Shown here piece after piece: positions 1 to 64,000 of a stretch of DNA of 64,000 nt. The position numbers and the translations under genes are program-made. The stretch lies in the IMG/VR virus record IMGVR_UViG_3300042569_001270, positions 17,340 through 81,339 of that record; one strand, written 5' to 3'. The DNA is from a virus. The notes beneath the pieces are model-generated. The model saw only the letters and a program-made list of their open reading frames with translations, was not told where the DNA came from and did no database searches. Position 1 is the first letter of the stretch; the number at the start of each line of letters is the position of its first letter.

Positions 1-3000
1 TTTCACGTTTTGCCAAAGATGACGATTGATCAGTACCCTGAGCAGCTCAGGACTTTCCTTGGTCCCAGCTTCCAGTACCGCAGCATCGCCACGCAGGACA
101 TCTCCACCCGAGGCGTGGACTACCCAGAGGCTCTTGCCACGCTAGAAGCCATCTTGGCGGGCAAGAAGCAGTTTGCTCCCAACGTGATCATCTCAAACTC
201 TTGGCTGGACGGTGGCCGGGAGTTGGAGGACTTGAAGCGTGCTGAGGGGTTGAACGTCTACGACAGCAAGACAAACCAGTTCATCCCAAACCCCGCACTT
301 TCTGAGCAGGAGTACGAGGACCGTCTGGACAAGCTGATTCCCCAGCTTCGCTTCGTGCAGCTTATTAAAGCTATTCAAGAGAAGTACGGCGCGGCGTTTA
401 TTATTGACGAAGCTCACTCACCGGGCGCGGGTCTTCGTAACGAGAAGAACATCGCCTACAAAGTTTTCCGTCACATGACGGAAGGTGCTGACCACGTTCT
501 GGGTATGACGGCAAACGCTGCGTCGAACGGTGTCAAAGACATCGTGACGATGATGGGAGCGATCAACCCAGAGGCTGTCACCGAAGACGTGCGCAGACTG
601 CAGGAGCAGTATGCCTCCGTTTCGATAGTCCCTAAGCTGGATGCTGACGGAAACCCGACTGGACAGCGGGTTCGTCAGTACAGCAACCTCGACAGCTTCA
701 TGCGCGGCTCAAAAGACTTGATGCCGTTCTTTTATCAAAAAGTAAAAAGCGATCCTGACGTGCGGGCGGAGCTTGAGTCTGCAGGCTTTACAGTCCCGCA
801 GATGCGCATCCGTCGGCGCAACCACCCAGTGAGTCCCCTTCTGTCACAGTACCTCTCGATGGCCGAGAACGGGCACGACGACTACGTTCGGCTTGAGAAG
901 GCTCGCATCCGTAACGAACGCAATATCAATCGTTATCGCAATTTTCTTGCAGGCCACAATCCTTATTACGCAGACAAGAACCTCTACCCAGACGAGGCTC
1001 TTTGGTCTCTTCGTACTGTGACTCGTGCGCAGAAGGACGACGATGGTAATTTTTATCGTGATCCCGTCACGGGTGAGTACGCACTCTACGAACAGCCTGT
1101 CGCACAGGACTACAAGTTCAAGCCTCCGCGTAAAGACGTTCCCCTTCGCTGGGACGATGTGAAGGACGACAACACCAAAGCTGCCTTGTACAAGTACAAT
1201 CTTGCTAAAAAGATTCGTCTTGACCCCGCTATGGTCTGGGGCAACGCCATGCCCGAGGCCCATCGTGGGGCCGCGTTTGGCAAGGTTGAAGCTGCTGTCG
1301 AGGCAGTGCTTGAGCACATGAACAGCCCCGTCACGAACGACGGCTGCATCATCTTGGCCGTCGAAAGCGTGCAGGCGATGAAGGTGATTCGCGACCGGCT
1401 TCGCGAGGAGGGCGTTGACAGCCCGCTGATCGCTGAGTTCCGTGGTGACGGAGACAGCACCGTCGTTGACAAGCGCTTGGCTTCAGACCGTGACGCTGCT
1501 GCTAAGCTTATTAACAAGAAGCAGATAAAAGTCGCGCTGATGTCCATCCGACTGGCCGTCGGTCTGAACCTTCAGCACGCCTCCAAGATGGTGATGATTG
1601 AAGAGCCGAGCACCGTGCACCACATGGATCAAACTTTGGGGCGCATCAGCCGCATCGGCGGTAACTCACTGGCAGAGATTGAAATCCTGAACCTGAACAC
1701 AGACGTGGACTTTAAGGCTCTCCGCAACCGTTATGAGAAAGCCTTGCAGGTCCTTCCGCTGTTCCAGCACGACGAGTTGCTGGCCACTTCCGACGCGCTA
1801 CCCGCCCTCATCAACCACATCGAGGCGGGGCTTGAGCGGCTGGGCCTGCCGACGGGTCCTGACTACCACGACGAGATGAAGCCGGTGGCCGACCGCGTAG
1901 CCCTTGCAGAGCAGCAGGACCGTCTCGGGCTGGGGGGTATCCCTCACGATCTTTCGCGCTTCAAACAGGTTATTAACGGTCCTGCCTCAAAGTTCTTGCG
2001 TATTCCTGCTTCAGCCACCGAGCAGGTCATCCGCTACGCTAAGAACGGCCTCAGCATGATTAACCAAAAAGCTGAAGCAAACGAAATTCTTTATCAAGAA
2101 AAAAAGCGCAGCAAGGACGACTACGAAAAGGTTAAAGAGGCTGTTGATCGCGACCGTGACTTGTTTATGATGACAACGTCTTTGTTTGGGCAGCAGAACA
2201 TCGTTGTACCGGGCAAGTACAGTGCCGTCGTTCCTCAGTACGCGAGCTTCGAGTCCACGAGCGACATCAACCCGTTTGCGGTTCTGGTTTCACAGGCCCA
2301 GACACCGGATGCTCGACTCAAGCGCAAGGTCGTCACGAGCTTGATTGATACGCCTAATTCTGTGATCTCAGACTCAGACGTTCCGGGCGGCAACGACATT
2401 TACATTCACTACTACGCGTGGGAGCTTATTCATAAGTACGGTCTGAAGTCTGTTGCGGAGCTTGTTGAAGGACACGAGCGACAGATCGCAGAAGCTATGG
2501 GGCTTTGGAACGACACCTATCGACTGACTCGGTATGTGAAGTACACCAACATGCTGCGAGACTGGGCGAAGCAGGGCTACATTCGCTGGACGGGTACTGA
2601 GCCTGCACAGCTGCCGTTGAAGACCCCAGAGCTTGGCGAGGTTCGTGGGATTCGGCCCGCAAGGCCTCCGCCTTACCTGACTGCGGAAGAGGCCCTCCTC
2701 CGCTTCATGCTGGCCACGTCCAAGGACCCAAACATGCTTGAGGCCATGCGGCAGTCGCCGGGCATCCAGCAGGAACTGAAGCACCTTGGACTTGAGCACA
2801 AGGACCCCGAGAAGACAGTGCTGACGCCGGGGGCCGCTGCTCACACCCCTACATTTGATCCTGTTTCTGTGTGGGACGGACGGCAGCACCTCACGGTGAC
2901 GCCTGCGGAGTTGGGTCAGTTCTGGAGCAACGTGAAGGCGTACCTCGATGGCGGAGGCTCAATCAGTAGCGTGGACGAGGCGCATCGTGCGTTGACGGGC

Positions 3001-3354
3001 AGCACTGGTCCTGTAGGGGAAAGTGCTCAAGCAACGCGCATTATTATGTACGAGTTCGAGAAGCGTGGACTGACTCGCTCGACGTACACGCCAAGCGTTC
3101 CTCAGATTCGCGTCTCTCGTATCGGCAAGCACAACCTTCCCAACTTTGAAGACCTTCCTGCAGAGGGCAAAGTTATTAAAGGCGACGACCTTGAACACTA
3201 CTGGGAGACGCTCTACAACTACTTGGACGCAGGCAACAGTCTGACGAGCCACGAAGGCCTCGCATCCGTTCTCGGGCTGAAACCAGAAGACCAATCACTG
3301 ACACGCCACATCATGGACGAGTTCATCCGCCAGCGACTCGTCGTGAGGAGCTAA
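1..3354 (+). CDS. C-terminal part of a giant SF2/SNF2-like helicase protein (DarB-like or polyvalent virion protein); probably starts before the window
   Basis: Motifs IIDEAH (II), GMTA (III), VGLNLQHAS (V), QTLGRISRIG (VI). No Walker A in the window and the frame is open from base 1. Duplicated helical domain at the C-terminus. Confidence 0.75.
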   Translation, partial: FHVLPKMTIDQYPEQLRTFLGPSFQYRSIATQDISTRGVDYPEALATLEAILAGKKQFAPNVIISNSWLDGGRELEDLKRAEGLNVYDSKTNQFIPNPALSEQEYEDRLDKLIPQLRFVQLIKAIQEKYGAAFIIDEAHSPGAGLRNEKNIAYKVFRHMTEGADHVLGMTANAASNGVKDIVTMMGAINPEAVTEDVRRLQEQYASVSIVPKLDADGNPTGQRVRQYSNLDSFMRGSKDLMPFFYQKVKSDPDVRAELESAGFTVPQMRIRRRNHPVSPLLSQYLSMAENGHDDYVRLEKARIRNERNINRYRNFLAGHNPYYADKNLYPDEALWSLRTVTRAQKDDDGNFYRDPVTGEYALYEQPVAQDYKFKPPRKDVPLRWDDVKDDNTKAALYKYNLAKKIRLDPAMVWGNAMPEAHRGAAFGKVEAAVEAVLEHMNSPVTNDGCIILAVESVQAMKVIRDRLREEGVDSPLIAEFRGDGDSTVVDKRLASDRDAAAKLINKKQIKVALMSIRLAVGLNLQHASKMVMIEEPSTVHHMDQTLGRISRIGGNSLAEIEILNLNTDVDFKALRNRYEKALQVLPLFQHDELLATSDALPALINHIEAGLERLGLPTGPDYHDEMKPVADRVALAEQQDRLGLGGIPHDLSRFKQVINGPASKFLRIPASATEQVIRYAKNGLSMINQKAEANEILYQEKKRSKDDYEKVKEAVDRDRDLFMMTTSLFGQQNIVVPGKYSAVVPQYASFESTSDINPFAVLVSQAQTPDARLKRKVVTSLIDTPNSVISDSDVPGGNDIYIHYYAWELIHKYGLKSVAELVEGHERQIAEAMGLWNDTYRLTRYVKYTNMLRDWAKQGYIRWTGTEPAQLPLKTPELGEVRGIRPARPPPYLTAEEALLRFMLATSKDPNMLEAMRQSPGIQQELKHLGLEHKDPEKTVLTPGAAAHTPTFDPVSVWDGRQHLTVTPAELGQFWSNVKAYLDGGGSISSVDEAHRALTGSTGPVGESAQATRIIMYEFEKRGLTRSTYTPSVPQIRVSRIGKHNLPNFEDLPAEGKVIKGDDLEHYWETLYNYLDAGNSLTSHEGLASVLGLKPEDQSLTRHIMDEFIRQRLVVRS

Positions 3355-3355
3355 C

Positions 3356-5793: not shown

Positions 5794-5831
5794 CAACACC
5801 CACGGGCCACGCCCAAGAAAGGATGTCTCAC

Positions 5832-6830
5832 ATGTCTGACGTGATTGATGATTTCTTCTCCGACGAGGAGCTTCTGAAGTCGATCTCAGAGCTTGACAAC
5901 GAACTGGTCAAGGGCGTGAAGGGCTACGGCGGCGACGACGACTCCGGTACGCCGGAAGGCGACAGCGAGTCTGATGACTCGTCGGACGAGTCGGACGAGT
6001 CGGACTCGTCGATGACTGCCGACGGCGACAGCGAGACTGCCTCGCCTCCCCCCTTCGCCAAGAAGTCGGTCAAGAAGGGCCTGCTCGGCGGCAAGGTCGT
6101 GAATCAGTCGAAGGACGGTCACGGTCCCGTTGACGAGGACGCCCCGAAGAACGAGATCACCCACGGTGGCCACAAGGGCAACAACATGGGCAAGGCGAGC
6201 CTGCCTGCCCAGAACGCTGCTCCGGGGATGGTCGCTCCGGGTTCCAAGAAGAAGGAACTCTTCCGCTCGCAGGACGAGGCTACCTCGGACGACGAGTCCT
6301 CGACCGGTCACGGCAAGGGCGGCCTCGCCAAGTCGTTCAGCGACGTGGCTTCGCCGGAAGCCGAGCGCACGCTCGACGTCACCCCGTTCCTCGCCGCGCA
6401 GGCTGAGACCCTCGACAGCATCGCGGAGGGGATCAATGCCCTCGCGAAGTCGCTCGACGGCTTCGGTCAGCAGGACGCCCTCGCGAAGTCGGTCGTTGAC
6501 CTTGGTCGCGGGATGATCGACACTCGCAACCAGATCAAGGAGCTGTTTGAGTCGATCAACGACATCCGCAAGGGTCTTCGCCTGCCGGTTCGTCAGGCCC
6601 CGAAGGCTTCGCTCTCGAAGAGCGTGAGCGCGGAGCAGGTCGAGCGGTTTGAGCAGAGCGCTCCGTCGCTCAGCAAGTCGCAGACGGCGGCCATCATCAG
6701 CGACCTCGTCATCAAGGGTGATGTTGATCCGATGGCGGTTTCGGCTTACGAGGCCACCGGCTGGATGGATCGGGCCACGGAGCAGGCGGTTCAGGCGGCA
6801 ATTTCGGCGCGGTTTGCGCGCAGGGCGTAA
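5832..6830 (+). CDS. capsid scaffold-like protein
   Basis: Acidic low-complexity N-terminus, repeated LxKS/LxKG motifs, coiled coil, directly before the major capsid gene. Confidence 0.7.
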   Translation: MSDVIDDFFSDEELLKSISELDNELVKGVKGYGGDDDSGTPEGDSESDDSSDESDESDSSMTADGDSETASPPPFAKKSVKKGLLGGKVVNQSKDGHGPVDEDAPKNEITHGGHKGNNMGKASLPAQNAAPGMVAPGSKKKELFRSQDEATSDDESSTGHGKGGLAKSFSDVASPEAERTLDVTPFLAAQAETLDSIAEGINALAKSLDGFGQQDALAKSVVDLGRGMIDTRNQIKELFESINDIRKGLRLPVRQAPKASLSKSVSAEQVERFEQSAPSLSKSQTAAIISDLVIKGDVDPMAVSAYEATGWMDRATEQAVQAAISARFARRA

Positions 6831-6889
6831 GGGTCAGAGGCAACTTTCACAAAGGTGGTCTCTGACCACCAGACAGACAGGAGAGATCG

Positions 6890-8386
6890 ATGGACAACAT
6901 GGTTTCGATGAATGACTACGCCGATCTGCTCGGCGGAGCCGTCGCTGGTGGCGCTGCCTCCCCGGAGCAGGTCGATCAGCTGAACAAGGCCCTCTCGGCT
7001 GGTACCGCCCGTGGCGGTAACGAAGGAAGCGCGAACGCTGGCGACGGCTCGTCGCTCCGCATGGAGTCCCTTGAGGAGACCCTCAAGGTGATCACCTACC
7101 GCGAGGAGATGATCAAGCTCTGGCGGCGAGTGAAGAAGAAGGCCGCGTACAACACGGTCGAGGAGTACAACCTTCTCAAGGAGTACGGCGGCGACGCTGG
7201 CGTGTTCACCCTTGAGGGTGAGCTTCCTGAGACGGTGGACTCCACGCTGGAGCGCAAGACCGCTCTGGTGAAGTTCCTCGGCGTCGTGGGCGAGGTCACC
7301 CACCCGATGATGCTCGTGCGTTCGGCGCACGGCAACGTCGTGGCGCTTGAGATTCAGAACAAGACGCGCCACCTCCTCCGCCAGATCGAGGTCTCGCTCT
7401 TCAACGGGCGTCAGGACAACGTCTCGGTCGAGTGGGACGGCTACTTCAAGCAGATTTTCGACGGCATTGGGATCACTGATCTCAACACCGGTCTGTACTC
7501 GGCCACCGACGTCATCGGTGGTGACTCGACCTACGGCAAGACGGTCGTGATCGACTGCCGTGGTGGCAAGATTGACGAGGAGAAGATCGAAGCCGCGTCG
7601 AACTTCGGTCTCCAGAACTACGGTCAGCTGAACACCCTGTGGCTCGCGCCGCAGGCCAAGTCGGACCTCGTGAAGGAGTTCTACCCCCGTCAGCGCGTTC
7701 AGCTGCCCCCGCCGGTCAACGGCAAGGTCGGCATGAGCGTCAGCGAGGTCGAGACCTCGGCTGGCCTGATCTCGCTTGAGGCCGACATCTTCCTCCGCTC
7801 GGGAGCGAAGCACGGCGTCAAGACGGCCCCGGTGGCGGCGACGTCGTCCAAGGCCCCGAACGCCCCGTCGAACGCGATCTGGGCGGCTGCCGCGACGAAC
7901 ACGAAGTCGATGTTCAAGGCGGCGGACGCTGGCCTCTACAACTACTCGGTCACGGCTGTGAACCGCTACGGCGAGTCGCTTCCGTTCTCGGTGGTGTCCT
8001 CGGTTGCGCACGAGGCCGGTAAGGCCGCTGTGCTCACGATCACGGACGGTGGCTACGGCTCGGGCGCTGCTGCCGCGACCTGCTACAAGATTTACCGGTC
8101 GGCAGTCGGCGGCGCGGGTGATCGCCAGCTGCTCACCACGGTGAAGCGCGATGCGGCCACGACGGCGTTCACGGACTACAACTGGTTCCTCCCCGGCACG
8201 TCGATGGCGTGGATGAGCGAGGAGGATGACGCGGAGCACCACAGCTTCCGTCAGCTCGCCCCGCTGATGCGCATCCCGCTCGCGACGGTTGCGGCCAGCA
8301 TGCGCTGGATGCAGCTGCTCTACGGCACGCCGCTGCTCTACAAGCCGCGCCAGAACGTGGTGTTCGTAAACGTGAAGGACAGCTAA
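6890..8386 (+). CDS. major capsid protein (SPO1/Twort-like)
   Basis: LNKAL...GSSLRMESLEETLK..., AYNTVEEY, LAPLMRIPLA, YGTPLLYKP; 498 aa; strongest codon bias; GGAG RBS. Confidence 0.9.
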   Translation: MDNMVSMNDYADLLGGAVAGGAASPEQVDQLNKALSAGTARGGNEGSANAGDGSSLRMESLEETLKVITYREEMIKLWRRVKKKAAYNTVEEYNLLKEYGGDAGVFTLEGELPETVDSTLERKTALVKFLGVVGEVTHPMMLVRSAHGNVVALEIQNKTRHLLRQIEVSLFNGRQDNVSVEWDGYFKQIFDGIGITDLNTGLYSATDVIGGDSTYGKTVVIDCRGGKIDEEKIEAASNFGLQNYGQLNTLWLAPQAKSDLVKEFYPRQRVQLPPPVNGKVGMSVSEVETSAGLISLEADIFLRSGAKHGVKTAPVAATSSKAPNAPSNAIWAAAATNTKSMFKAADAGLYNYSVTAVNRYGESLPFSVVSSVAHEAGKAAVLTITDGGYGSGAAAATCYKIYRSAVGGAGDRQLLTTVKRDAATTAFTDYNWFLPGTSMAWMSEEDDAEHHSFRQLAPLMRIPLATVAASMRWMQLLYGTPLLYKPRQNVVFVNVKDS

Positions 8387-8415
8387 GCCTCGGCTGCTGA
8401 TCCCTAATGCGAGCG

Positions 8416-8450
8416 GGCCGGTAGCTGGGAGACTGGCTACCGGCCTTCTC
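8416..8450 (+). terminator. stem-loop after major capsid gene
   Basis: GGCCGGTAGC/GCTACCGGCC stem with GAGA loop; weak U-tract. Confidence 0.6.
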
Positions 8451-8469
8451 GCTTGATAAGGAGTCTGAG

Positions 8470-8697
8470 ATGGGTGTGAAGATCAAGTTTGTGCCTCACG
8501 CGTTCTCTGGCAGTGTCGTCACCTCTGCCGGTGAAGTCGTCGTCGTGGACAACGAGGCCGAGGTGTCGTCGGAGCAGGCAGCTGCTCTCGTTGGCACGGG
8601 TCTCTGGGTGAAGGCGAACTCGACCGCTGGCCTCCCGAAGGTCAACGACCAGATCACCGACGCCGTGACGGCTGCACCGTCGAAGAAGAAGCAGTAA
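8470..8697 (+). CDS. hypothetical virion protein
   Basis: AAGGAG RBS, 75 aa, between capsid and neck genes. Confidence 0.65.
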   Translation: MGVKIKFVPHAFSGSVVTSAGEVVVVDNEAEVSSEQAAALVGTGLWVKANSTAGLPKVNDQITDAVTAAPSKKKQ

Positions 8698-8718
8698 GCT
8701 CGTCGCGAGGAGAGGCCA

Positions 8719-9531
8719 ATGGCGATCCATTCTCTGTTCGGTAAGCTCAGCGATCTCACGCCCGCCTACGTCAAGGGGCGGTACCTTATTGATCTCGCTG
8801 ATAGGCTTGTCCTGCAGGATGGGTCGCCTTGGCCCGACCTTGCTTACGATCACGCCATCGAGACGGCCATCGTGCGGTTTCAGGAGGCGACACAGGTCAA
8901 CATCCTGTCGACTCCCATTGAGCGTGATCCCTACGATTTTGATCTTCGCGACTACAACAACTTCGCGTACTTCAGCCTCAATCAGCGACCCGTAAAGCAT
9001 CTCACCAAGTTCGAGGTGAAATGGCCCTCGTCCGACATCTACACGGAATGGCCTCTGGCGTGGGTGAAGCTGCAGCCCATGAGCGGGCAGCTTCGCCTCG
9101 TGCCCACGGGCGGTACCATCGCGCAGGTGCTGCTTGGGCAGGGATCGCAGTATCTCCCGCTTCTGGCGGGCAACTACTCGCTGGTCCCTCAGCTGTTCTA
9201 CATCAGCTACGTTCCCGGCTTCCCCAACGACGACATTCCGAAGACGATCCTCGACTGCATCTGCAAGATGGCGGTCATCGAGCTTCTGACGGTCGCCAGC
9301 GACACGATCTACAAGCCCGGCGTGACGAGCTACAGCATCGGTAAGGACGGCGTCACTGAGAGCATCGGTATTATGAATAACGGTCGCCTGCCCGCAGTCT
9401 TCGGCAGCCGGATCGGGTTCTACATGCGCCAGTTGTATGGGAACGTCGATTCGTCGATGTGGGACGGCAACGGCGGCGACCTCGGGCACATCAGGAAGAC
9501 GTACCGCACGATGTCGATGTCCGTGGCGTAG
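8719..9531 (+). CDS. head-tail adaptor (neck protein 1)
   Basis: Gene order; ISYVPGF and SYSIGKDGVTESI as in myophage adaptors. Confidence 0.7.
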   Translation: MAIHSLFGKLSDLTPAYVKGRYLIDLADRLVLQDGSPWPDLAYDHAIETAIVRFQEATQVNILSTPIERDPYDFDLRDYNNFAYFSLNQRPVKHLTKFEVKWPSSDIYTEWPLAWVKLQPMSGQLRLVPTGGTIAQVLLGQGSQYLPLLAGNYSLVPQLFYISYVPGFPNDDIPKTILDCICKMAVIELLTVASDTIYKPGVTSYSIGKDGVTESIGIMNNGRLPAVFGSRIGFYMRQLYGNVDSSMWDGNGGDLGHIRKTYRTMSMSVA

Positions 9532-9539
9532 GAGGCAGC

Positions 9540-10292
9540 ATGGCTCTTCTCTCCAAGAACCCCTTCAGCCCGTTCGGCGGCCCTCGTCTGTCTCAAAAGG
9601 ACTTCGAGTCGCTTGGGCGTGAGCAGGGCTATCGGGTTAAGTGGGAGAAGGCGATGTACTGCCCTCGCCGCATCAACAACGACTTTGATAAGCACGACAT
9701 GAACTGCCCTGTGTGCGAGTCGCGCTTTGGTATTATTTATTTTGACCCTAAAGTGACTGACCCTTACGGACAGGACCTTCGGGCCATCGTGACCGGTATT
9801 CCGCAGGAACAGCAGTACCGAGCAGAGGGCTACACCGACGCAGGTTCTGCCTATGTCAGCCTGCCGCCCAAGATGACGCCCAACTACGGCGACCGCATCT
9901 GGCTCCTTGAGTCCCGTATGCGCGTGTCACAGGTCCTGAAGCGCGGTCCTACGGACATCGACAAGCTCAAGTACAAGGCCATCCCTGCGAGCCAGAACGG
10001 CGGCATCCTGTACGTTGTGGACGGCAACGGCGTGAACCACACGGGCAACGTGGTCCTGACACCGGGGAGCGGACAACAGGACGGCTGTGATCTGCAGTGG
10101 GTGCAGAACGCTCCGCCCGAGGGTGCCACCTTCTCTGTGATGTACTACCGTACGCCCGCATACATTATTGTTGATCTTCCTCACATCATCCGCGACAACC
10201 TGCGCGAGGGAGACGACGTTAACGAGGACCTCGGTACGCAGGCGCTTTGCAAGCTCGACTTCCTCATCAGGGACGAGTCTCTCGGAGGCTGA
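9540..10292 (+). CDS. head closure protein (neck protein 2)
   Basis: WEKAMYCP...CPVC zinc motif, GDRI, gene order. Confidence 0.7.
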   Translation: MALLSKNPFSPFGGPRLSQKDFESLGREQGYRVKWEKAMYCPRRINNDFDKHDMNCPVCESRFGIIYFDPKVTDPYGQDLRAIVTGIPQEQQYRAEGYTDAGSAYVSLPPKMTPNYGDRIWLLESRMRVSQVLKRGPTDIDKLKYKAIPASQNGGILYVVDGNGVNHTGNVVLTPGSGQQDGCDLQWVQNAPPEGATFSVMYYRTPAYIIVDLPHIIRDNLREGDDVNEDLGTQALCKLDFLIRDESLGG

Positions 10293-10293
10293 C

Positions 10294-11100
10294 ATGGCTT
10301 CGCGCGACGTTGACGACATTGTTAAGATGGTCGAAGACTTCGCTACCGAGCGGGCGCTAGAGGCTGTTCGTAACTTTATCAACGAACAGCTTGCTGCTTC
10401 TCATGTTGGGGAATGGCGTCGCAAGAAGTACCTCGACGGTCTGCAGCTTCGGTACGACACGCAGAGCAGGGCACTCGACTTTCACTTTACAGACTCGAAG
10501 GCTGAAGAGGTCGAGAAGGGCGTTCCCCCTATTGATCTTAAAAAGCACTTTGCTAAGTCCCCCAAGCTCAAGAAGACGATTTCGACCGAGGCCGGTGAAA
10601 CGAAGAACGGCTGGTACGTCGATGTGCCTTTCTACTTCGCCTCCTCGTCAGAGATGGCCGCTTTCAAGTCAGGCTCTCTGGACGTTGGTAGGAATCTTTT
10701 TTATCAAGCACGCGAAGACACTGAAGCAGCCATGCTGAAGCTCCCTGATGCACTGAAGGAGCGACTGCGGGCTGACAAGGCAACCAAGAAGGGTCCCGCA
10801 ACCGAGGGCACTGAGGTGAAGCTTCGACCAGAGCACCGCGTCGGGCTGCTCGCGGACGTGATGCTTCAGCCCAAGGCAGCGACTGTTATGGGTGGTCTGT
10901 CCATCGACAACCACAAGGGCAACCGCTCGGTTGGTCGTGATCTTGGCCCGATGCACTTCAACACGATCCGCCGCATCGGTAGCGAGTCTCCCGCAGAGTC
11001 TTGGTGGGTCCCGGCTCAACCCGGCCTGAACTTGGAAGACGCAGCACAACGATTATTCTACGACGTCGCCAGCGGGATCATCGACGGCGTAATGACCTGA
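10294..11100 (+). CDS. neck / tail completion protein
   Basis: EKG..PIDLK, GWYVDVPF, RRIGSESPAESWW; gene order. Confidence 0.65.
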   Translation: MASRDVDDIVKMVEDFATERALEAVRNFINEQLAASHVGEWRRKKYLDGLQLRYDTQSRALDFHFTDSKAEEVEKGVPPIDLKKHFAKSPKLKKTISTEAGETKNGWYVDVPFYFASSSEMAAFKSGSLDVGRNLFYQAREDTEAAMLKLPDALKERLRADKATKKGPATEGTEVKLRPEHRVGLLADVMLQPKAATVMGGLSIDNHKGNRSVGRDLGPMHFNTIRRIGSESPAESWWVPAQPGLNLEDAAQRLFYDVASGIIDGVMT

Positions 11101-11108
11101 GGTTAATA

Positions 11109-11753
11109 ATGGCTGCTGTCGCACCAGAAATACTGCTGAGCAACCTGCTCAACGGCGGGTTCGCTGCTCTGAAGGCCGACTACGACCTCGTGTCCGACGT
11201 CTTCTCAACCCTCTCGTCGGGCGAACGCGCAGAGTTGCGGGAGTTCTTTAGTAAAGAGATCATCACCGTCCGCATCGGAAAGCCTCCGCGCGGCCCTGAC
11301 TACCGAGTTCCGCTGGTCGTGATTGAGGCCATCAGCGACGAGGAAGTTGCTGAGCAGGACTTGCTTGGCGATCAACTGTACGACTTTGAAGACAGCATGG
11401 AGTACGGGGCCGCCGAAGGGGTCCGTCTCAGGAGTACCTACAACCTCGTCATGGTCGGTAAGGACAACCGGCAGGCCCGTATCCTCTACAGGACGACAGT
11501 TGCACTGTTGATCCTTTACAGGTACGACCTAGAGAACGCTGGCTTCCAAAACCGGCGAATGAGTGGTAACAGGGACGTTGTCGTTGATCTAGGTGCTGAC
11601 CCGCTTGAAGGCAAAGTGATGAGCATCACGGGCGAGCACTGGTTTTCAGTCAGAAGGTCAGAGAGGCTTTCCCCGTTGGTTATTAACGTTGCAATCACCA
11701 GCGAGGTCCCCGACATCGGCGGGGTCAGTTCGGACGTCAACCCGACTGTGTAG
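11109..11753 (+). CDS. tail terminator-like protein
   Basis: 214 aa directly upstream of the sheath gene. Confidence 0.55.
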   Translation: MAAVAPEILLSNLLNGGFAALKADYDLVSDVFSTLSSGERAELREFFSKEIITVRIGKPPRGPDYRVPLVVIEAISDEEVAEQDLLGDQLYDFEDSMEYGAAEGVRLRSTYNLVMVGKDNRQARILYRTTVALLILYRYDLENAGFQNRRMSGNRDVVVDLGADPLEGKVMSITGEHWFSVRRSERLSPLVINVAITSEVPDIGGVSSDVNPTV

Positions 11754-11797
11754 ACAGTCACGCTTGGTAGCGGTAGCCTTTAACAGAGGAGAGTCCC

Positions 11798-13636
11798 ATG
11801 TCGCAGATCGTCTATTTCAACGGCACTAGGTTGGTTCGCCCCGGCGGTGCCTCGAAGCTCGACGCTTCATCCTTCGAGGGCGTGACTGTCGAGGGCATCG
11901 GCAGCATCGGGATCATCGGTGAGGCCGACAACGGTGAAGATGGTGTCGCCATCGCCTTCACCAACGCCTCCGCGATGGAGCAGTACTTCGGCAGCGGCGC
12001 TCTCGCCAACGCCGCGCGTGTGGCCTTCAGGCCGCTGAGCGACGCTCGCGTGGGCGACGCCAAGGCCCAGACGGTCTACGCCTACAAGACCAACGCGGGT
12101 ACGGCGGCTTCGCTGAACCTCGCTGACGGTACCTCCGTGGTGAAGCTGACGGCTGCCAAGAAGGGCACCATCGGCAACACCTACACGGCGCTGGTCTCGT
12201 ACGACGGCACCACCAAGCGGCGGACGTACACGATCACCCCCAACAGCAGCTCCGGCCTCAGGCAGGAGAGGATCGTTGTTAACGAGGGTGCCAAGCTCAA
12301 GATTTGGTACAAGGGCGCGGGTACGGTTCCCAAGGTCTTTACGACTGCCGACTCGACGAACATCGGCTGGCTGCAGAAGATCACCCTGAACGCGACGACC
12401 ACGCCTGCGGATCAGGACAAGCTGGAGATCGCGTTTGACGACGGGACGATCTCGTCCATTCAGGACCTTGCCACCCGCATCAACGGGTCGCTGAACACCG
12501 CTGGCACCCCTGTGAACGTCTGGGGTGCCACGGTCGTCAGCACGTCGGACGCCCTTCGCTTCCACCCGCGCACGCTCGACACCATCGCTTCCCCCGGCCC
12601 CACCGTGGGTACGGCGGAGGTCAGCGCGACGGACATCTCGGGTCTGCTGCAGGACTCGCTGGATGCGATCAACAACAGCCTGACGCTGGTGACGGCGGCC
12701 CTGCCTGCTTCGTTCACGAAGCGCTCTGTGCCGGTGGCGTTCACCGAGCCGCTGCAGCTGACCGGCGGCGCACTCGGTACGACTGCTGTGGGTGCTCTCC
12801 AGACCGCTCTGGACAGATTCAAGGCCATCGACGTTCCGGGCCTTGTGATCACCAGCACGGACGCTGCGAGCATCAAGCTCCTTGCGAATCACTGCACGGA
12901 GATGTCGAGCACCGGATCAAGCAAGAAGGAGCGCACGGGCTACGCGGGCGTCACTGGCTCCAAGGCGGAGATTCTTGCGTGCGCTGGGCAGAACGCTGGG
13001 TGCGCCGACCTCGTTCTGACCTGTCAGAAGTGGCACACGGTTGATCGCTTTGCGAACAACGTGGTCTACCCTGAGTGGGCTTCCGCTCTTGCTCTTTGCT
13101 CCGCTCGCGCGGGCCTTGAGCCGGGCGAGCCGCTGACGTGGAAGTTCTTCTCGGCCACCGACATCTCGTCGGCCAACACCGCTTGGACTCCGCAGGGCGA
13201 CGCTGAGGACCTCATCCTCGGTGGTGTGTGCGTGTTCGAGCGCAACCGCTCGGGCGTCAAGCTGCTGAAGGGCATCACGACCTACACGCAGTTTGATAAC
13301 GACGTGTTTGTCGAGGAGTCCATCATCACGAACGTGAAGGCCATGTCGAAGGAGTTCCGTGAGCTTCTGGAGCTTCGCTACACGGGCCGCAAGGCCACTC
13401 CGGCGATCCTCGGAGATATGCGGGCCACTGCCGTGGAGTTCTGGGGTCAGAAGCGTGCGCAGGGCCGGATCGTGGACTCCGTCGTCAACGGGCAGACGAC
13501 GAAGTTTGCCTACCGGAACCTCTTGATCTCAGCCAACCGTGATCAGGTGTTCGTGGACGTCGAGATCAGCCCGGTCTCCGGCATCAACTTCCAGCTTGAG
13601 ACGATCCGTCTCGTCCCGGCGACGCTGAGCGTCTAA
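11798..13636 (+). CDS. contractile tail sheath protein
   Basis: YFNG..LVRPG N-terminus, IGIIGEA..G, EPLTWK, KGITT, C-terminal PVSGINF. Confidence 0.9.
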   Translation: MSQIVYFNGTRLVRPGGASKLDASSFEGVTVEGIGSIGIIGEADNGEDGVAIAFTNASAMEQYFGSGALANAARVAFRPLSDARVGDAKAQTVYAYKTNAGTAASLNLADGTSVVKLTAAKKGTIGNTYTALVSYDGTTKRRTYTITPNSSSGLRQERIVVNEGAKLKIWYKGAGTVPKVFTTADSTNIGWLQKITLNATTTPADQDKLEIAFDDGTISSIQDLATRINGSLNTAGTPVNVWGATVVSTSDALRFHPRTLDTIASPGPTVGTAEVSATDISGLLQDSLDAINNSLTLVTAALPASFTKRSVPVAFTEPLQLTGGALGTTAVGALQTALDRFKAIDVPGLVITSTDAASIKLLANHCTEMSSTGSSKKERTGYAGVTGSKAEILACAGQNAGCADLVLTCQKWHTVDRFANNVVYPEWASALALCSARAGLEPGEPLTWKFFSATDISSANTAWTPQGDAEDLILGGVCVFERNRSGVKLLKGITTYTQFDNDVFVEESIITNVKAMSKEFRELLELRYTGRKATPAILGDMRATAVEFWGQKRAQGRIVDSVVNGQTTKFAYRNLLISANRDQVFVDVEISPVSGINFQLETIRLVPATLSV

Positions 13637-13663
13637 GCCCTTCACACGAGAGAGAGGTGACAC

Positions 13664-14173
13664 ATGGCTGTCCTTACTGGTTCACGAGCGTTGTTCAAGA
13701 TGAACGTTGCTGGAGGTGCTGAGGCCAAGGTTGGCTACGCCTTCGGCGTAGACATCGACGAAGAGATCATGCACGAGGAGGTCCAGACGCTGGACTCCCT
13801 CTCGGTCACGGAGCACGTTCCCGTTGCCTACCGCGTGAACATGTCCGCCGAGTTGTTCCGCACCATCCCCACGGGCGGTAAGACCGTCGTCGGTGAGGAC
13901 GGCGTGTCGAAGGACTCGACAGCGCTCGCGCAGGGCATGAAGGAAGCGGGCCTGATGGCGAGGATCGGTAACGGTGACTCTGCCGCCCTCACGCAGGCGC
14001 TTCTCGTGGCCAAGCTGTACGATGCGGGCGCGAACAACGCTGCCATCGGAGAGGTCTCTGGCGTGCGCGTGGTCAGCAATCGCTTCTCGGTGCGTGCCCG
14101 CCAGATCGTTGCTGACAACGTCCGCTTCGTCGCTCGGCGCTTCAAGGACTACTCGGAGTTGTTCCCGACGTAG
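13664..14173 (+). CDS. tail tube protein
   Basis: 169 aa after the sheath; LTGSRA, VGYA, EHVP. Confidence 0.8.
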   Translation: MAVLTGSRALFKMNVAGGAEAKVGYAFGVDIDEEIMHEEVQTLDSLSVTEHVPVAYRVNMSAELFRTIPTGGKTVVGEDGVSKDSTALAQGMKEAGLMARIGNGDSAALTQALLVAKLYDAGANNAAIGEVSGVRVVSNRFSVRARQIVADNVRFVARRFKDYSELFPT

Positions 14174-14203
14174 TGGCGTTATCAAGACGGTTCTGGTAGA
14201 AGG

Positions 14204-14232
14204 AGCCTGCGGAGAAATCCGCAGGCTTTTTT
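14204..14232 (+). terminator. rho-independent terminator
   Basis: AGCCTGCGGA-GAAA-TCCGCAGGCT followed by TTTTT. Confidence 0.85.
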
Positions 14233-14250
14233 CTTAACAAGGGAGCAACC

Positions 14251-14691
14251 ATGACGACCGAGAACGACATCGAGCTGAAGGAAGAGATCGCAGAATACGC
14301 CGAGATCGGTGAGGACCTGAAGCCGGGGCAGACTCGTGTGCAGGCCATCGAGGCCGACGCGAAGGTCAAGCGCTTCAAGAACAGTCACACGTTCCTGTTC
14401 GAGCACAACTCCGCTCTTGATAAGCGCGTGTTCTCTGGGACGATCACAATCAAGCGCCTCAACATCGGTGAGCTGGCTCGGGCCGAGACGGAGATCGCTC
14501 GCCGCAACACTGGCCTCAACCCTAGCGATCCGATTTCGTTCTTCAACGAGCGGCTCATCACTGTGACCTCGCGCGTCGTCGATGGACCGGACTGGGCGAA
14601 GAACGTCGAGAACAGCGACGAGCTTCACGATCCTCTTGTCGTCCAGCGCTTGTGGGAAGAGGTGCAGAAGTACGAAAACTCGTTTCGTTGA
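14251..14691 (+). CDS. tail assembly chaperone (G-like)
   Basis: Between tube and tape measure; VVDGPDW; ends TCG TTT CGT TGA. Confidence 0.75.
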   Translation: MTTENDIELKEEIAEYAEIGEDLKPGQTRVQAIEADAKVKRFKNSHTFLFEHNSALDKRVFSGTITIKRLNIGELARAETEIARRNTGLNPSDPISFFNERLITVTSRVVDGPDWAKNVENSDELHDPLVVQRLWEEVQKYENSFR

Positions 14692-15073
14692 GTTTTATCA
14701 ACAACGACTCAAGGGTCTTCGTAAGATCGCTGAAGAGAATCTGAAGAGCGAGTTCCTCCGTCGGTACATCTGCAAGAAGTACATGATGCCACCGACGGAC
14801 CCTCGCTACCTCGCCTACACGCCAGAAGCCCTCTGGATCGAGTGGTTCGAGGACATGCTGGAGAAGGACCCTGACAAGCTCAAGGAAGCCTTCGTCACCA
14901 AGGAAGAGGCGAACGGAGCGGTCTTCACTGGGAACAAGGCCTTCGACGAGGCTGAGGCTCTGGCCGTGAGCGGCGACTACGCTGCTCTGGACAGGCTTAC
15001 GTCGTCTTGGGACACTGGATCGTCACCCGTCGAAGAGCCTCCAGAAGAAGGGTTTGTCGACGTCTACAAGTAG
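14684..15073 (+). CDS. tail assembly chaperone extension (GT-like), probably reached by +1 frameshift
   Basis: Open +1 frame overlapping the upstream stop; PPTDPRY motif; no good RBS and start before the coding-like part. Confidence 0.65.
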   Translation, partial: FVEFYQQRLKGLRKIAEENLKSEFLRRYICKKYMMPPTDPRYLAYTPEALWIEWFEDMLEKDPDKLKEAFVTKEEANGAVFTGNKAFDEAEALAVSGDYAALDRLTSSWDTGSSPVEEPPEEGFVDVYK

Positions 15074-15082
15074 GGAGCTTCG

Positions 15083-17440: not shown

Positions 17441-17443
17441 CCC

Positions 17444-19195: not shown

Positions 19196-19196
19196 C

Positions 19197-19934: not shown

Positions 19935-19937
19935 ACG

Positions 19938-22226: not shown

Positions 22227-22237
22227 CGGAGAAAACG

Positions 22238-24169: not shown

Positions 24170-24178
24170 GGAGCGTCC

Positions 24179-24844: not shown

Positions 24845-24847
24845 CCA

Positions 24848-37107: not shown

Positions 37108-37120
37108 GCACCCGTTCTTA

Positions 37121-37150: not shown

Positions 37151-37157
37151 TGGTGGC

Positions 37158-45765: not shown

Positions 45766-46152
45766 TTACTTGATGTTGACGATACGACCGACCGGATGCT
45801 TCGAGTCACCGCAGGACTTCACGGTGGACTTGGTGTCACTTGCGATCAAGCAACCGCACTTCAGCTTGAGCTTCTTCGCCGGAGGAGCGGATACCGTGAG
45901 TCCCTGAGCAGCGGCACGGGCTGCGTAGTCCTTGCCAAGTACCTCTTCAGCGGTCTTCCAGCCCCGCATCTTGTACTTGTTCTCGTACCACTCCTTGGCT
46001 TGGTTGTAGGCCTTGATCGAGTGAAGGTTCTCTTGGAGCCCCTTCTCCGTGTCGATGCGAGAGATCGTCAAGCTGCAGGAGTTGAACAGCTCTTTGATCG
46101 CATGAGAGTCTTGGCTGGTCTCAATCGCCAGTCGCATCTTCTCAACGTCCAT
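45766..46152 (-). CDS. hypothetical protein with C-terminal Cys/His cluster
   Basis: ATG overlaps the upstream stop (TGATG); KCGC..C...H. Confidence 0.6.
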   Translation of the reverse strand: MDVEKMRLAIETSQDSHAIKELFNSCSLTISRIDTEKGLQENLHSIKAYNQAKEWYENKYKMRGWKTAEEVLGKDYAARAAAQGLTVSAPPAKKLKLKCGCLIASDTKSTVKSCGDSKHPVGRIVNIK

Positions 46153-46814
46153 CAGTCGGCCTCTTCCCAGTCCGTAGAGAGCATGTCGGTCTGCGAGGCG
46201 AGCCAAGGAACGTAGTCACCCTGCGCCGTGTGCATGAAGATGTACGGGAGGGTCATCTTGCTGAGATCAGTCGGGCGCTGCAGTCCGATGAACATACCCT
46301 TGCCGTTCCAGCCCTTACGACGGAACACCCACCTGTTGTCGTTGAGGTTGTTGAGGCACCGCAGCACCCAGCCAAAGGAGCCGTGGTCCCGCTCCTTGAG
46401 GTAGTTGATCTCATCCCTCTGTCGCCGGATGGTCTCGGTGAGGTTGGTAGCCTGCAGGGCCATCGCCTCCTCACCCATCTTGAGGTTCGCACGGAGCATC
46501 TCGATGGTACTCGTGTGGCTGATGATCTCGGCGCGGAGCTTGGCGGACGCTGCTCCGAACTCCGCCTTCGCGGCGTACCAGTCTTTCTTGTAGGTCTCTG
46601 CCTTGGCTTCTGCTGCAAGGCACTGTTCCTCGGCTGAGGCCCGCTCTCGCTCTGCGTCGAGGGCGCGGGCCATCCACGATCCTTCCTTAGAGGCGTCCAG
46701 CACGTTAGCCAGCTGGGCTGTCAGCTTCTCGATGGTGACTCCCGCCATGCGGAGCCACTCCTCGTTGCTGATCACAACCGGTGTCATATCTTCCGTCTTG
46801 GTCTCTTCAGACAT
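46152..46814 (-). CDS. coiled-coil protein fused to a DUF2829/Tad2-like domain
   Basis: C-terminal SFGW.L..L...[37 protein letters not shown]. Confidence 0.8.
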
Positions 46815-54671: not shown

Positions 54672-55757
54672 TTACTGCGCCTTGACGCGGATCAGCTTCA
54701 GGACACCCTTCTCCTTCAGCTCCTCCGCCACGCCCTTGCACACTTCACCCTGCTCCGCCTTGTCGTCGGAGACAACGAAGACCTTCTGAATGGCCTCAAG
54801 GAAGAGCGGCTGGGTGACGCGCTGGTCCTCAGCAACGCCGTAAAGCTCGTTGACGAGATCAAACGCGCTGTCCGACGCCTTGAGCGGGTTCTCCTCAGAG
54901 ACCAGCTTGACGACGACACCATCACCGAACGGGGCGAAGGGGACGACCTTCTTCGTGAGCGAGGCCGTGACCGACGTAGCCTTGGCAGGGGCAGGAGCGG
55001 CCTTTTCAGCCTTCTTCGGGGCCTCCTTGACGACAGGGGCGGCCTTGGCGGGAGCCTTCTTCGGAGCAGGCTTCTCCTCCTCTTCCTCCTCTTCCTCCTC
55101 CTCTTCGTCCTCGTCGTCGGCTTCCGTGTCCTCGGAACCCTCAAGCTCCTCGTCCTCGTCAACCTCCTCAGCGTCGTCCTCGTCCTCCTCCTCGGTCTCC
55201 TCGACCTCCTCAGCCTCCTCCTCGTCCTCTTCGACCTCCTCGATCTCGTCGTCTTCGAGGGCGATGGTCTCCTCCTCCTCGACCTCCTCCGGCTCGGGGG
55301 CCTTCTTCTTCTTGACCTCCTTGACCGGCTCGACGGGGGCAGCAGCCTTCTTCGCGTTCTTGATGTCCTTGGCCATGATCTTCTTCCTCTCTTCTTTCGT
55401 GAGTCCTTCCTTGGACTCGGTGAGTGACGAACCGCCTTTGATGATTTGCGCTACCGACGTCTGGAGTGTGTGAAAGCACTCAGCGGCGAACGCACACTTC
55501 TCAGCACAGTAAGGCTCCCGTGCAGAAAAGTACCTACCGAAGCACTGCTCTTTACTAACGACGTGTTGTGGTGGCTTCACCTGCTCGTACGGGTGATTCT
55601 TGATTATGGCTCGTCCGTCATCGACTCTCCTATTCTCCATCCATTCCATCATGGTGGAGCGCTGTTCCTCAAGCTCGCCGGTTGCCGGTGTGCCTAGCAG
55701 TCGGACGAGTTTGGGGAGTTGTTCATCGGTGGCTGTTGCGAGTTGTTTGGTGAGCAC
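54672..55757 (-). CDS. protein with Cys cluster and long acidic tract
   Basis: CFG..C...C.....C, then Lys/Ala/Pro segments around a long E/D run. Confidence 0.7.
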   Translation of the reverse strand: MLTKQLATATDEQLPKLVRLLGTPATGELEEQRSTMMEWMENRRVDDGRAIIKNHPYEQVKPPQHVVSKEQCFGRYFSAREPYCAEKCAFAAECFHTLQTSVAQIIKGGSSLTESKEGLTKEERKKIMAKDIKNAKKAAAPVEPVKEVKKKKAPEPEEVEEEETIALEDDEIEEVEEDEEEAEEVEETEEEDEDDAEEVDEDEELEGSEDTEADDEDEEEEEEEEEEEKPAPKKAPAKAAPVVKEAPKKAEKAAPAPAKATSVTASLTKKVVPFAPFGDGVVVKLVSEENPLKASDSAFDLVNELYGVAEDQRVTQPLFLEAIQKVFVVSDDKAEQGEVCKGVAEELKEKGVLKLIRVKAQ

Positions 55758-60254: not shown

Positions 60255-60663
60255 TCTTGGTCTCCTTGGCCTCGACGGCCTTCGTGGTTTCCTTGGCAGT
60301 GGTCGTGTTCTTGGTGGGCTGAGTGGGCGTCGGCTCCGGCTCCTTCACGGTGGCCGGAGCGGTGGGAGGTGTCACCTTGGCGGGCTTCTTCCCCCCGAGA
60401 CCCACCGAAACAGTGGGCGGCGGAGGGAAGTTCGGTGTCGTGGTTCCACCGCTAACAGCGATGAAGTCAACGGCGCAGGGGTTGTAGTGCATGATCTTGG
60501 AGGTCGTCTTGTTCCAAGCGATCATGCTCCCTACTGGGGCCGCTGAGCCACACACCGAGCACTTGTTGGGGAACTTTGCATTGATCGGAATCCACCCAGC
60601 GGCTCGAAGGTCCGTTCGAGCCTTGGTGTCTTCCGCTGGCGTCAGGTTCTTAGCTGTCTGCAT
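60181..60663 (-). CDS. hypothetical protein with zinc ribbon
   Basis: AAGGAG RBS; AKF..KC..CG...G..I.W...H..C. Confidence 0.7.
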   Translation of the reverse strand: MQTAKNLTPAEDTKARTDLRAAGWIPINAKFPNKCSVCGSAAPVGSMIAWNKTTSKIMHYNPCAVDFIAVSGGTTTPNFPPPPTVSVGLGGKKPAKVTPPTAPATVKEPEPTPTQPTKNTTTAKETTKAVEAKETKNEQPAKPQQRKFSFTNIKLSDLKR

Positions 60664-60678
60664 CGTCGGCTCCTTGGA

Positions 60679-62384: not shown

Positions 62385-62430
62385 CTCATTTTCGTAACCT
62401 CCTTTTCTTGGGTGGGTGGCACCGTCGCCG

Positions 62431-62545
62431 CCTCACACCACTTGGCCCCGTTGCAACTTCGGCGGCATACAGGTTTCGTTGCGGGAGGCGCTGCTGGCCC
62501 CCTCACACCACTTGGCCCCGTTGCAACTTCGCTGGCATAGAGGTT
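62431..62545. repeat. two-copy direct repeat, 31 nt identical core, period 70
   Basis: CCTCACACCACTTGGCCCCGTTGCAACTTCG at 62431 and 62501, similarity continues about 14 nt. Confidence 0.9.
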
Positions 62546-62604
62546 CATAAAAACGCTGGCTGGCCCAAGGCGTGCATGCTACGCTGCCCCAAGGAGGCTC
62601 CAAC

Positions 62605-63519: not shown

Positions 63520-63527
63520 GAGACAAA

Positions 63528-64000
63528 GTGATCATCCCCATCATCTCAGACATTCACGTTCACAACTGGCGGGAGTTCTCGAAGCTGGACTCCGACGGCG
63601 TACCAACCCGACTCAAGGACACACTCAAGCCGTTCCAAGAGCTTCGCGCTTACATGAAGAGGAACGACCTCACCACGGCGTTCTGTGCCGGTGACGTTTT
63701 CCATAAGCGCAACGTGATTCAGACGCAGAGCTTCAACCTCGCCTTCAACACGGTCGCTCGCTTTGCACAGGAGAACCTTGACCTGTTTATGATCCCCGGC
63801 AATCACGACCAAACGACCAAGGACGGGCAGCTTCACTCACTGCAGCCTATGGCCGAGGTCGCTGCGGTGTTCAGTACGCCTATTGAAAAGGACTTCGGGG
63901 ACACGACCGTTGTCTTCATGCCGTTCTTGGACGACGCACAGGCCACGAAGGACTTTCTCAACGGTCTGCAGCGGCCCAAGAAGGCCAAGCGGGTCATCCT
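63528..64000 (+). CDS. metallophosphoesterase, SbcD/Mre11-like nuclease subunit (partial)
   Basis: ISDIH, AGDVFH, IPGNHD read directly from DNA; AGGAG RBS before GTG; runs off the window. Confidence 0.85.
   Translation, partial: MIIPIISDIHVHNWREFSKLDSDGVPTRLKDTLKPFQELRAYMKRNDLTTAFCAGDVFHKRNVIQTQSFNLAFNTVARFAQENLDLFMIPGNHDQTTKDGQLHSLQPMAEVAAVFSTPIEKDFGDTTVVFMPFLDDAQATKDFLNGLQRPKKAKRVI

Follow-up and report, generated by a model that had tools for sequence, protein, structure and literature searches.

Genome and window

The DNA considered here is a window of 64,000 nucleotides, bases 17340-81339 of the single 81,339-bp contig of IMG/VR virus record IMGVR_UViG_3300042569_001270. This phage carries a seven-base palindrome, TTANTAA, in marked excess and writes it into its genes by synonymous codon choice; that word is the subject of what follows. 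Positions are window positions unless stated otherwise, and counts for the genome refer to the whole contig. The window has a GC content of 58.7%. Seventy-four genes, covering 94% of the contig, were identified with a crude caller of our own, which missed some genes. The late and structural genes lie on the plus strand and the replication block on the minus strand.

Searches named a portal, an SU10-type major capsid protein, a tail sheath and a transglycosylase among the structural families. Those of replication and repair comprise UvsW-like and DnaB-like helicases, a toprim primase, a family-A DNA polymerase, SSB, RecA and a 5'-3' exonuclease; those of nucleotide metabolism are a class II ribonucleotide reductase, a ThyX-like protein and a CobT/CobS-like pair. 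A PF01555 DNA methyltransferase, a Tad2-like protein and a ParB-like protein were also named. This is a contractile tailed phage distant from those described, the product of its tail sheath gene (11798-13636, plus strand) matching tail sheath proteins at 24-29% identity at best.

Excess of TTGATAA and related words

A sequence-only reading of the window had singled out TTGATAA and its complement TTATCAA as a word present in both orientations at 29 positions, where base composition predicted two or three. All 29 positions are present and one more, 55910, had been overlooked, giving 15 copies of TTGATAA and 15 of TTATCAA; the computed base-composition expectation is 2.90 for the window. Two null models were used. 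In the plain one, synonymous codons are shuffled within each gene, so that protein and per-gene codon usage are kept; in the dinucleotide-preserving one, two codons may exchange third bases only if they agree in their first two bases and in the base that follows. The 30 copies in the window compare with 10.9 expected from 60 dinucleotide-preserving shuffles (standard deviation 2.5, maximum 17), and the 34 in the genome with 15.4 (plain) and 14.4 (dinucleotide-preserving; 300 shuffles each, maxima 22 and 23). Taken alone, the 31 genes with 300 codons or more hold 20 against 4.6. Among the 448 strand-merged 7-mers of the genome with a single G or C, this word is the commonest (34 copies; mean 2.6).

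The related words named in that reading fared unequally. TTATTAA/TTAATAA, correctly placed at 362, 1508, 1970, 3173, 5459, 11103 and 11680, is the commonest of the 64 all-A/T 7-mers (25 copies; mean 2.0, runner-up 9), and with 5.8-6.8 copies expected in the genome its enrichment goes beyond that of TTGATAA, as does that of TTACTAA/TTAGTAA (17 vs 6.0-6.6). TTGTTAA/TTAACAA is raised modestly (24 vs 13.8-15.9), and TTGCTAA/TTAGCAA (10 vs 6.7-7.7) not significantly. A general class of TT-N3-AA relatives is too broad, since TTGNCAA, which has neither of the preferred inner bases described below, is depleted (17 vs 37-38), and TTCNGAA and TTCNCAA are at expectation. The palindrome TTANTAA, with its half-degenerate forms TTNNTAA/TTANNAA, is the real unit, and not TTGATAA.

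Identity of the palindrome

All gapped words up to nine bases wide with four to six fixed bases were compared with 60 dinucleotide-preserving synonymous shuffles. At the top stood TTANTAA, with 84 strand-counts against 25.2 (42 sites against 12.6), and TTNNTAA/TTANNAA, with 219 against 103 strand-counts; other high-ranking words overlap these, except TTGATC. TTANTAA stands alone among the palindromes of 4-7 bp in being strongly enriched in the genome (42 vs 12.6, z 8.3), and a second-order Markov model expects 2.8 strand-counts where 84 are found. The second-placed palindrome is its own core, TANTA (85 vs 48), whose entire excess comes from copies flanked by TT and AA, the derived number of copies without these flanks being about 22 against about 22. 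In the window there are 33 TTANTAA against 9.8 expected and 138 TTNNTAA/TTANNAA against 65.0 (maximum 77 in 60 shuffles); the genome has 177 of the latter against 89.7-110.2, and the 31 long genes hold 30 TTANTAA against 5.6.

All five fixed bases of the degenerate form matter. One-base changes of them give observed-to-expected ratios of 0.80-1.12, the exceptions being AT..TAA (1.6), TT..TTA (1.5) and TT..TAT (1.25), and the equally A/T-rich TA..TAA and TT..AAA stand at 0.81. At the inner positions A is preferred at position 3, T at position 5, and A or T at position 4: the ratios are 4.1 for TTAWTAA (W, A or T), 2.6 for TTASTAA (S, C or G), 2.5 for TTGATAA, 1.8 for TTGTTAA, and about 1.1-1.5 for TTGCTAA, TTGGTAA and TTCCTAA. 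When the distance between TTA and TAA is varied, only the one-base spacing stands out (42 vs 12.6).

Synonymous codon choice

Thirty-seven of the 42 TTANTAA sites are genic, every one framed as xTT ANT AAx and encoding (F, L, I or V)-(I, N, T or S)-(K or N). The wider motif is in genes almost always framed as xTT NNT AAx, that is, (F, L, I or V)-x-(K or N). The contention that the word goes against codon bias is borne out: before AA, T occupies the third position (T3) in 12% of codons overall, yet in 100 of the 169 codons ending in C or T that stand between xTT and AAx, compared with 25 of 175 after xTC (odds ratio, OR, 8.7); away from AA the corresponding OR is 2.1. A site in the sheath gene itself (13293-13299, plus strand), read as TTT GAT AAC, is real. 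The first codon of the motif behaves likewise, xTT being chosen over xTC in 37 of 41 cases before ANT-AAx and in 50 of 137 before ANT and another codon (OR 16). With the A half only (ANC or ANG before AAx) the OR for xTT is 2.5, with the T half only (CNT or GNT before AAx) it is 3.3, and with neither (GNC before AAx) it is 0.52. The half-sites TTA and TAA thus each contribute, and jointly more than additively, as would be expected if double-stranded DNA were read with two-fold symmetry. The rare lysine codon AAA is drawn in too, being used at 13 of 20 positions after TTANT and at 176 of 1530 (11.5%) elsewhere.

A second reading frame, xxT TAN NAA, is enriched as well (11 vs 3.6-3.9), from which it follows that neither a tRNA nor a codon-pair effect is at work. 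In uncalled, non-coding DNA, part of which probably represents missed genes, the degenerate motif occurs 16 times against 3.1 and TTANTAA four times against 0.22. Sites at gene junctions, which the sequence-only reading had also listed, are present, several of them being tandem stop codons (TGA TAA) or lying within spacers. The tripeptides able to carry the words are realised in 37 of 156 cases for TTANTAA and in 100 of 526 for TTNNTAA; per potential TTANTAA site the strength corresponds to an odds ratio of about 7 (24% realised vs about 4.5% expected).

These tripeptides are mostly old, as judged from the SNF2-like protein, in which 36 of the 39 residues encoded by motif codons are the same in an orthologue of 90% identity. 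The comparison was confined to this protein because the 1581-amino-acid protein of the head module has no homologues. At the TTATTAA of the SNF2-like gene (3173-3179, plus strand; genome position 20512) the phage has V-I-K where the 90%-identical orthologue has V-V-T; here two residues were needed that differ from both orthologues.

Three very large genes lie in the head-gene block, encoding proteins of 1581, 1046 and 1736 amino acids (contig positions 6781-14734, upstream of the window, and window positions 1-3354). The 1736-residue protein is the SNF2-like one with the 90% orthologue. Pfam gave no match for the other two, and the 1581-residue protein had zero homologues in a set of 5.8 billion proteins.

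Distribution of the sites

The degenerate forms make up a dispersed field over positions 1-64000, with 138 sites in the window and 177 in the genome, about one per 460 bp and irregularly spaced. The 33 TTANTAA sites of the window (362-63065) start at 362, 1508, 1970, 3173, 5459, 11103, 11248, 11680, 15105, 15360, 16350, 17055, 20659, 23148, 23637, 24432, 24585, 25728, 26256, 26493, 26973, 27111, 27303, 28760, 29335, 29731, 32644, 35679, 37101, 51906, 55552, 62358 and 63059. Seven overlapping pairs 3 bp apart occur in the genome, one of them at 1508-1517 on the plus strand (TTATTAA at 1508, TTAACAA at 1511).

Per kb, the genome has 0.52 TTANTAA and 2.2 degenerate sites. Enrichment amounts to 1.2-3.3 fold in each 5-kb bin and is present in both gene blocks, and no strand or position bias of the palindrome was detected. 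No helical or longer periodicity was found, the vector strength being at most 0.26 at periods of 10-24 bp (68 pair distances). Together with the irregular spacing (coefficient of variation 1.13) this speaks against a phased array of coating or lattice-binding sites, which was rejected; spacing and periodicity were among the checks suggested in the sequence-only reading. A promoter role was also rejected, as the sites show no concentration in the spacers ahead of genes.

Comparison with other phages

The excess of TTANTAA is confined to this phage lineage. The five closest relatives that could be compared at the DNA level, with capsid proteins 47-52% identical, contain a single TTANTAA in 227,074 bases. 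In 57 phage and metagenome-assembled-genome loci with a GC fraction of 0.54-0.64, totalling 803 kb, there are 16 (0.02 per kb vs 0.52 here), so that the word is about 26 times rarer in GC-matched loci than in the phage, a comparison that involves no gene model. The highest single locus of this set, at 0.34 per kb, appears to be different in kind. The best relative (G001; 80 kb, 64% GC) resembles the phage in strongly avoiding CCGCGG, CTCGAG, GCCGGC, GGCGCC and GAGCTC, part of the set described below, and has no enriched palindrome.

Closer relatives are known as proteins, with capsid homologues of 66-82% identity in Logan assemblies and the 90% SNF2-like orthologue. A capsid-alignment scan gave only relatives of at most 52% identity, and single-protein scans of IMG/VR with the polymerase and the methyltransferase gave no matches. 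A GTDB scan gave distant matches only, mostly to metagenome-assembled genomes, and no clue to the host.

Identical pieces of the phage are present in several lake-water metagenomes, and the metagenomes with matching DNA come from lakes and fresh water; this records presence and carries no statement about habitat. Over window positions 5800-25799, three of the four runs compared have identical fragments, and the fourth, a freshwater metagenome, contains a relative about 95% alike. That relative differs from the phage at 582 positions, with C>T (120) and T>C (117) in balance, and among the 40 of these 582 differences that were listed none falls at a motif site, which carries no weight either way.

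Controls

The controls and partial ALTERNATIVES are brought together in this section. A Markov model of codon pairs, conditioned on the protein, expects 65.1 TTNNTAA where there are 100 and 16.9 TTANTAA where there are 37. Part of the signal is taken up by such a model, which also predicts too many T's before fixed codons that begin with A; for TTGATAA in the main frame, its first-order version (16 vs 7.5) is judged over-conservative. The shuffle proposed in the sequence-only reading as a check was thus passed under both codon-aware and codon-pair-aware nulls.

Some other readings of the word were rejected. An off-frame stop-codon "ambush" does not fit, T before AA or AG being generally avoided. 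The FNR/CRP-type box, with the consensus TTGAT-N4-ATCAA, has 0 occurrences, and none of the spacings from 0 to 14 shows enrichment; boxes of the FNR, Fur or IHF type were rejected on this spacing scan.

Avoided palindromes

More than 20 short palindromes are nearly eliminated from the genome when compared with codon-aware shuffles. CCWGG has 2 strand-counts against 313 and GRGCYC 2 against 160. GGCGCC, GCCGGC, CGATCG and GAGCTC are absent against 31-35 expected each (31 for CGATCG), as is CCGCGG (26.5 expected); CTCGAG and CGGCCG occur once each against 29-34, GTCGAC nine times against 42, and TCATGA at one site. Zero copies were also found of GGATCC, AGATCT, CCCGGG, CACGTG, TCCGGA, CCATGG, CTTAAG, GGGCCC, TTCGAA, GATATC and GCTAGC. 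This elimination implies that the phage DNA meets many type II restriction systems and that its evolution is efficient at the scale of short words, and thus a host range rich in such systems. TTANTAA does not behave as a restriction target under avoidance, being enriched and not depleted. An enriched word in a genome that removes palindromes offers a clean separation of the words that the host cuts from the word that the phage wants.

In a genome so heavily shaped by palindrome avoidance, and with a crude gene caller that missed some genes, the excess might be thought a by-product of that avoidance or an artefact of the gene calls or the null model. When shuffles are barred from creating any of 24 avoided restriction-site patterns, the expectations remain at 12.6 for TTANTAA and 92.9 for the degenerate forms, so restriction avoidance does not bring about the excess as a by-product. 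The 31 long genes keep the excess on their own, which removes gene-calling error as its cause, and the raw density, some 26 times that of GC-matched loci, owes nothing to a gene model. We regard this explanation as highly improbable.

TTGATC/GATCAA is over-used as well (162 vs 95, or 104 with the avoided sites forbidden), and GATC in total is at expectation (968 vs 976). The elimination of RGATCY and CGATCG flanks accounts for only part of this shift towards TGATC.

Candidate reader proteins

Classical helix-turn-helix dimers need more room than a seven-base palindrome with a free centre offers; such palindromes are typical of the targets of type II methyltransferases and endonucleases and of beta-sheet dimers of the ribbon-helix-helix type. 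The most concrete candidate for a reader of TTANTAA in this phage is a predicted orphan beta-class N6-adenine/N4-cytosine DNA methyltransferase (40787-41656, plus strand; PF01555, E 6e-14). Its resemblance to CcrM-type and N4-cytosine enzymes is remote and partial, well short of the family cut-offs (49.7 bits vs 830 for the CcrM/HinfI type). Its best representative homologues are 66%, 45% and 44% identical, and among those in IMG/VR none exceeds 29% identity at full length. One locus with a homologue of this enzyme contains seven TTANTAA against 0.8 expected, in close pairs, an excess much weaker than that of the phage.

Nature of the pressure

A sequence-specific, two-fold-symmetric pressure acting at the level of DNA favours TTANTAA and its half-degenerate forms. 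The excess is real, sharper than first described and unusual for a phage. The idea of a second code laid over the coding sequence therefore holds as far as a DNA-level signal against codon preference is concerned; TTGATAA as its unit does not. Such a signal may consist of binding or coating sites, modification sites or a mutational footprint, the three options offered in the sequence-only reading.

We put roughly even confidence in the view that TTANTAA is the recognition word of a two-fold-symmetric DNA-binding or DNA-modifying protein, kept by weak genome-wide pressure for site density. The reader would be a sequence-specific protein, dimeric or enzyme-like, acting on TTANTAA in double-stranded DNA. 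Weak pressure on density would write the word wherever the protein sequence permits, mainly in (F, L, I or V)-x-(K or N) tripeptides, by use of codons disfavoured elsewhere, namely xTT, NNT and even AAA. This pressure would be selection for a function that needs many dispersed sites, which might mark, protect, modify or organise the phage chromosome, the word being about 26 times less frequent in GC-matched DNA. Were the orphan methyltransferase the reader, the system would be a viral counterpart of the "highly iterated palindromes" (HIPs) of cyanobacteria.

Several observations weigh against this reading. Scans of 60 proteins against Pfam, NCBIfam and PHROGs, with one Atlas query, identified no reader and named only the ParB-like protein and the methyltransferase as sequence-specific binders; the ParB-like gene and a neighbouring gene of 367 amino acids are also found in the motif-free relative G001. 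The irregular spacing, with no concentration at promoters or gene ends, means that placement implies no specific function. A minor echo of the motif exists at TTA-N4-TAA (12 vs 4.6). On the sense strand, forms with only the 5' TTA half-site are just 1.25-1.28 fold above shuffles, set beside the OR of 2.5 in the internal comparison. A/T is clustered more broadly at synonymous sites, all-A/T 7-mers numbering 127 against 55.8, and xTT raises T3 in the next codon even away from AA (OR 2.1). Lastly, the data would also fit a site-specific, biased repair or mutation process.

The clustering of A/T calls for an account in which context-dependent mutation, or a general tendency of A and T to cluster at synonymous sites, produces the motif as the commonest A/T-rich word compatible with the codons. 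Besides the runs of seven A/T, 7-mers with at most one G or C are in excess (1292 vs 829, those within the motif accounting for 137 vs 61.6), and T3 is mildly raised at third positions flanking the motif. The autocorrelation of A/T at third positions is weak, however, at 0.06 for lag 1 and fading over about seven codons. The AA context multiplies the T3 effect fourfold (OR 8.7 vs 2.1), so that the signal survives the objection, raised with the sequence-only reading, that T-ending codons might cluster regardless of the following AA. After xAA a codon has T3 before AA in only 2 of 25 cases, the A/T-rich variants TA..TAA and TT..AAA fall below expectation, only the one-base spacing is strongly enriched, and the word is a perfect palindrome. 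Clustering accounts for part of the excess, not for its base-by-base specificity; as a full explanation it is largely refuted, and we consider it unlikely.

A signal in RNA would be slightly less likely still. Here UUANUAA in mRNAs would serve a ribonuclease or an RNA-binding protein, its palindromy being a coincidence. Nearly all sites are transcribed, and sense-strand forms ending in TAA (UAA in RNA) are raised 3.1-3.3 fold over shuffles against the 1.25-1.28 fold of their reverse complements. That asymmetry is largely explained by the shuffle pool, which contains the motif's own T's. By our own arithmetic the chance that a six-base RNA motif is palindromic is about 1.6%, and the two half-degenerate orientations have similar internal ORs (3.3 and 2.5); an RNA-level motif is improbable on these two grounds.

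Highly iterated palindromes have been explained either by selection or by a methylation-directed repair ratchet in Elhai 2015 (PMC4390886), where the ratchet is proposed for over-represented palindromes at about one per kb and the methyltransferase core is described as not over-represented outside the longer palindrome. By analogy, TTANTAA may be a by-product without a function of its own, the target of a phage or host methyltransferase lying within the palindrome and methylation-directed or site-specific repair acting as a ratchet. The densities of 0.52 and 2.2 per kb, the orphan PF01555 enzyme encoded by the phage, and a TANTA core at expectation without its flanks beside a full word enriched 3.3 fold would all suit such a history. 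Against it, the ratchet as proposed needs a methyl-cytosine next to G, and the fixed bases of TTANTAA include neither G nor C. No MutS/MutL/MutH-like or Vsr-like gene was found among the 60 proteins scanned (Pfam, NCBIfam, PHROGs) of the 74 called genes, and the methyltransferase is as a partner only a candidate. We hold the ratchet to be a minority possibility.

The cyanobacterial word HIP1 resembles TTANTAA in being a short perfect palindrome, far over-represented genome-wide, genes included, on the order of one per kb, with one-off variants also raised, a resident orphan methyltransferase as possible partner, and a shorter core (TANTA here) not enriched outside the full word. The excess here is likewise genome-wide (42 vs 12.6) and genic through codon choice, at 0.52 per kb. 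The differences are that TTANTAA belongs to a phage genome and not to a cyanobacterial chromosome; that it is purely A/T around N in a genome of 59% GC, and not a GC-rich word; that it is of odd length with a free centre and permits no methyl-C/G step; and that its methyltransferase partner is only a candidate. Unlike HIP1, whose cyanobacterial forms are GCGATCGC and variants that contain GC, the phage word is TTANTAA; CGATCG is absent here against 31 expected.

TTANTAA may also be set beside other short words that genomes multiply or remove. Restriction-site (palindrome) avoidance is a general phenomenon among phages; the unit is the same, a short palindrome controlled through synonymous codons, and the sign is opposite, TTANTAA being 3.3 fold up. 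Chi, the FtsK-orienting and SpoIIIE recognition sequences (KOPS/SRS) and DNA uptake sequences are words kept in many copies by weak density selection, often within genes. These are asymmetric and skewed in orientation, whereas TTANTAA is its own reverse complement and its half-degenerate forms are raised in both orientations. The "stoperators" of mycobacteriophage L5 and the C1 operators of P1 are asymmetric sites of 13-17 bp, mostly intergenic, in tens of copies. They share with TTANTAA the scattering of tens of copies of one protein-binding word across a phage genome, and differ from it in that TTANTAA is 7 bp, symmetric and mostly in codons, at 42-177 sites. Beta-class methyltransferases of the CcrM/HinfI type target GANTC. 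The phage enzyme belongs to the same Pfam family, and GANTC is, like the TANTA inside TTANTAA, a short palindrome with a free centre; the similarity of the enzyme is only partial, as noted above, and GANTC is neither enriched nor avoided here (GAATC 78 vs 78.8; GAGTC 166 vs 171.2).

Our searches of the literature on TTANTAA and on iterated or over-represented palindromes in phages found no phage-specific word written by synonymous codons. A more daring form of the protein-recognition reading is that TTANTAA is the first viral HIP, an A/T-only self-mark read, and perhaps methylated, by the phage methyltransferase or a partner dimer, in a genome whose other short palindromes were purged against host restriction; we offer it as a speculative and rather doubtful proposal. 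If true, the self-mark would allow the phage chromosome to be told apart from the GC-rich DNA of the host, whether for protection, for replication or for choice in packaging. Short words multiplied by genomes (Chi, uptake sequences, KOPS and HIP1) have each led to DNA-handling machinery; the present signal is strong, seven bases long and lineage-specific, and predicts a protein or modification specific for TTANTAA. In practical terms caution is called for, since a DNA-level code, and not translation, sets part of the codon usage of this phage.

Other features of the genome

Between the tail tube gene and a gene of 785 amino acids (15083-17440) lie two overlapping open reading frames on the plus strand, 14251-14691 and 14582-15073, a layout typical of tail-assembly chaperones made by programmed frameshift, which they may encode; 14692-15082 was left uncalled by the gene caller. 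Two further uncalled stretches with coding-like composition, 36753-37157 (405 bases) and 60255-60678 (424 bases), are probably missed genes. On the minus strand, 46152-46814 encodes a 220-amino-acid protein with a putative C-terminal Tad2-like (anti-Thoeris) domain (E 5e-19). Also on the minus strand, 54672-55652 encodes a 326-amino-acid protein of strongly biased codon usage, possibly a sigma-like factor of the phage, given its slight resemblance to RNA polymerase sigma factors (E 1e-4, well short of the cut-off). A pair of 49-nt direct repeats, 92% alike and 70 bp apart, is located at 62427-62545. The spacer that contains them separates the leftward replication block from the rightward 5'-3' exonuclease gene, and they are candidate promoter or origin elements.

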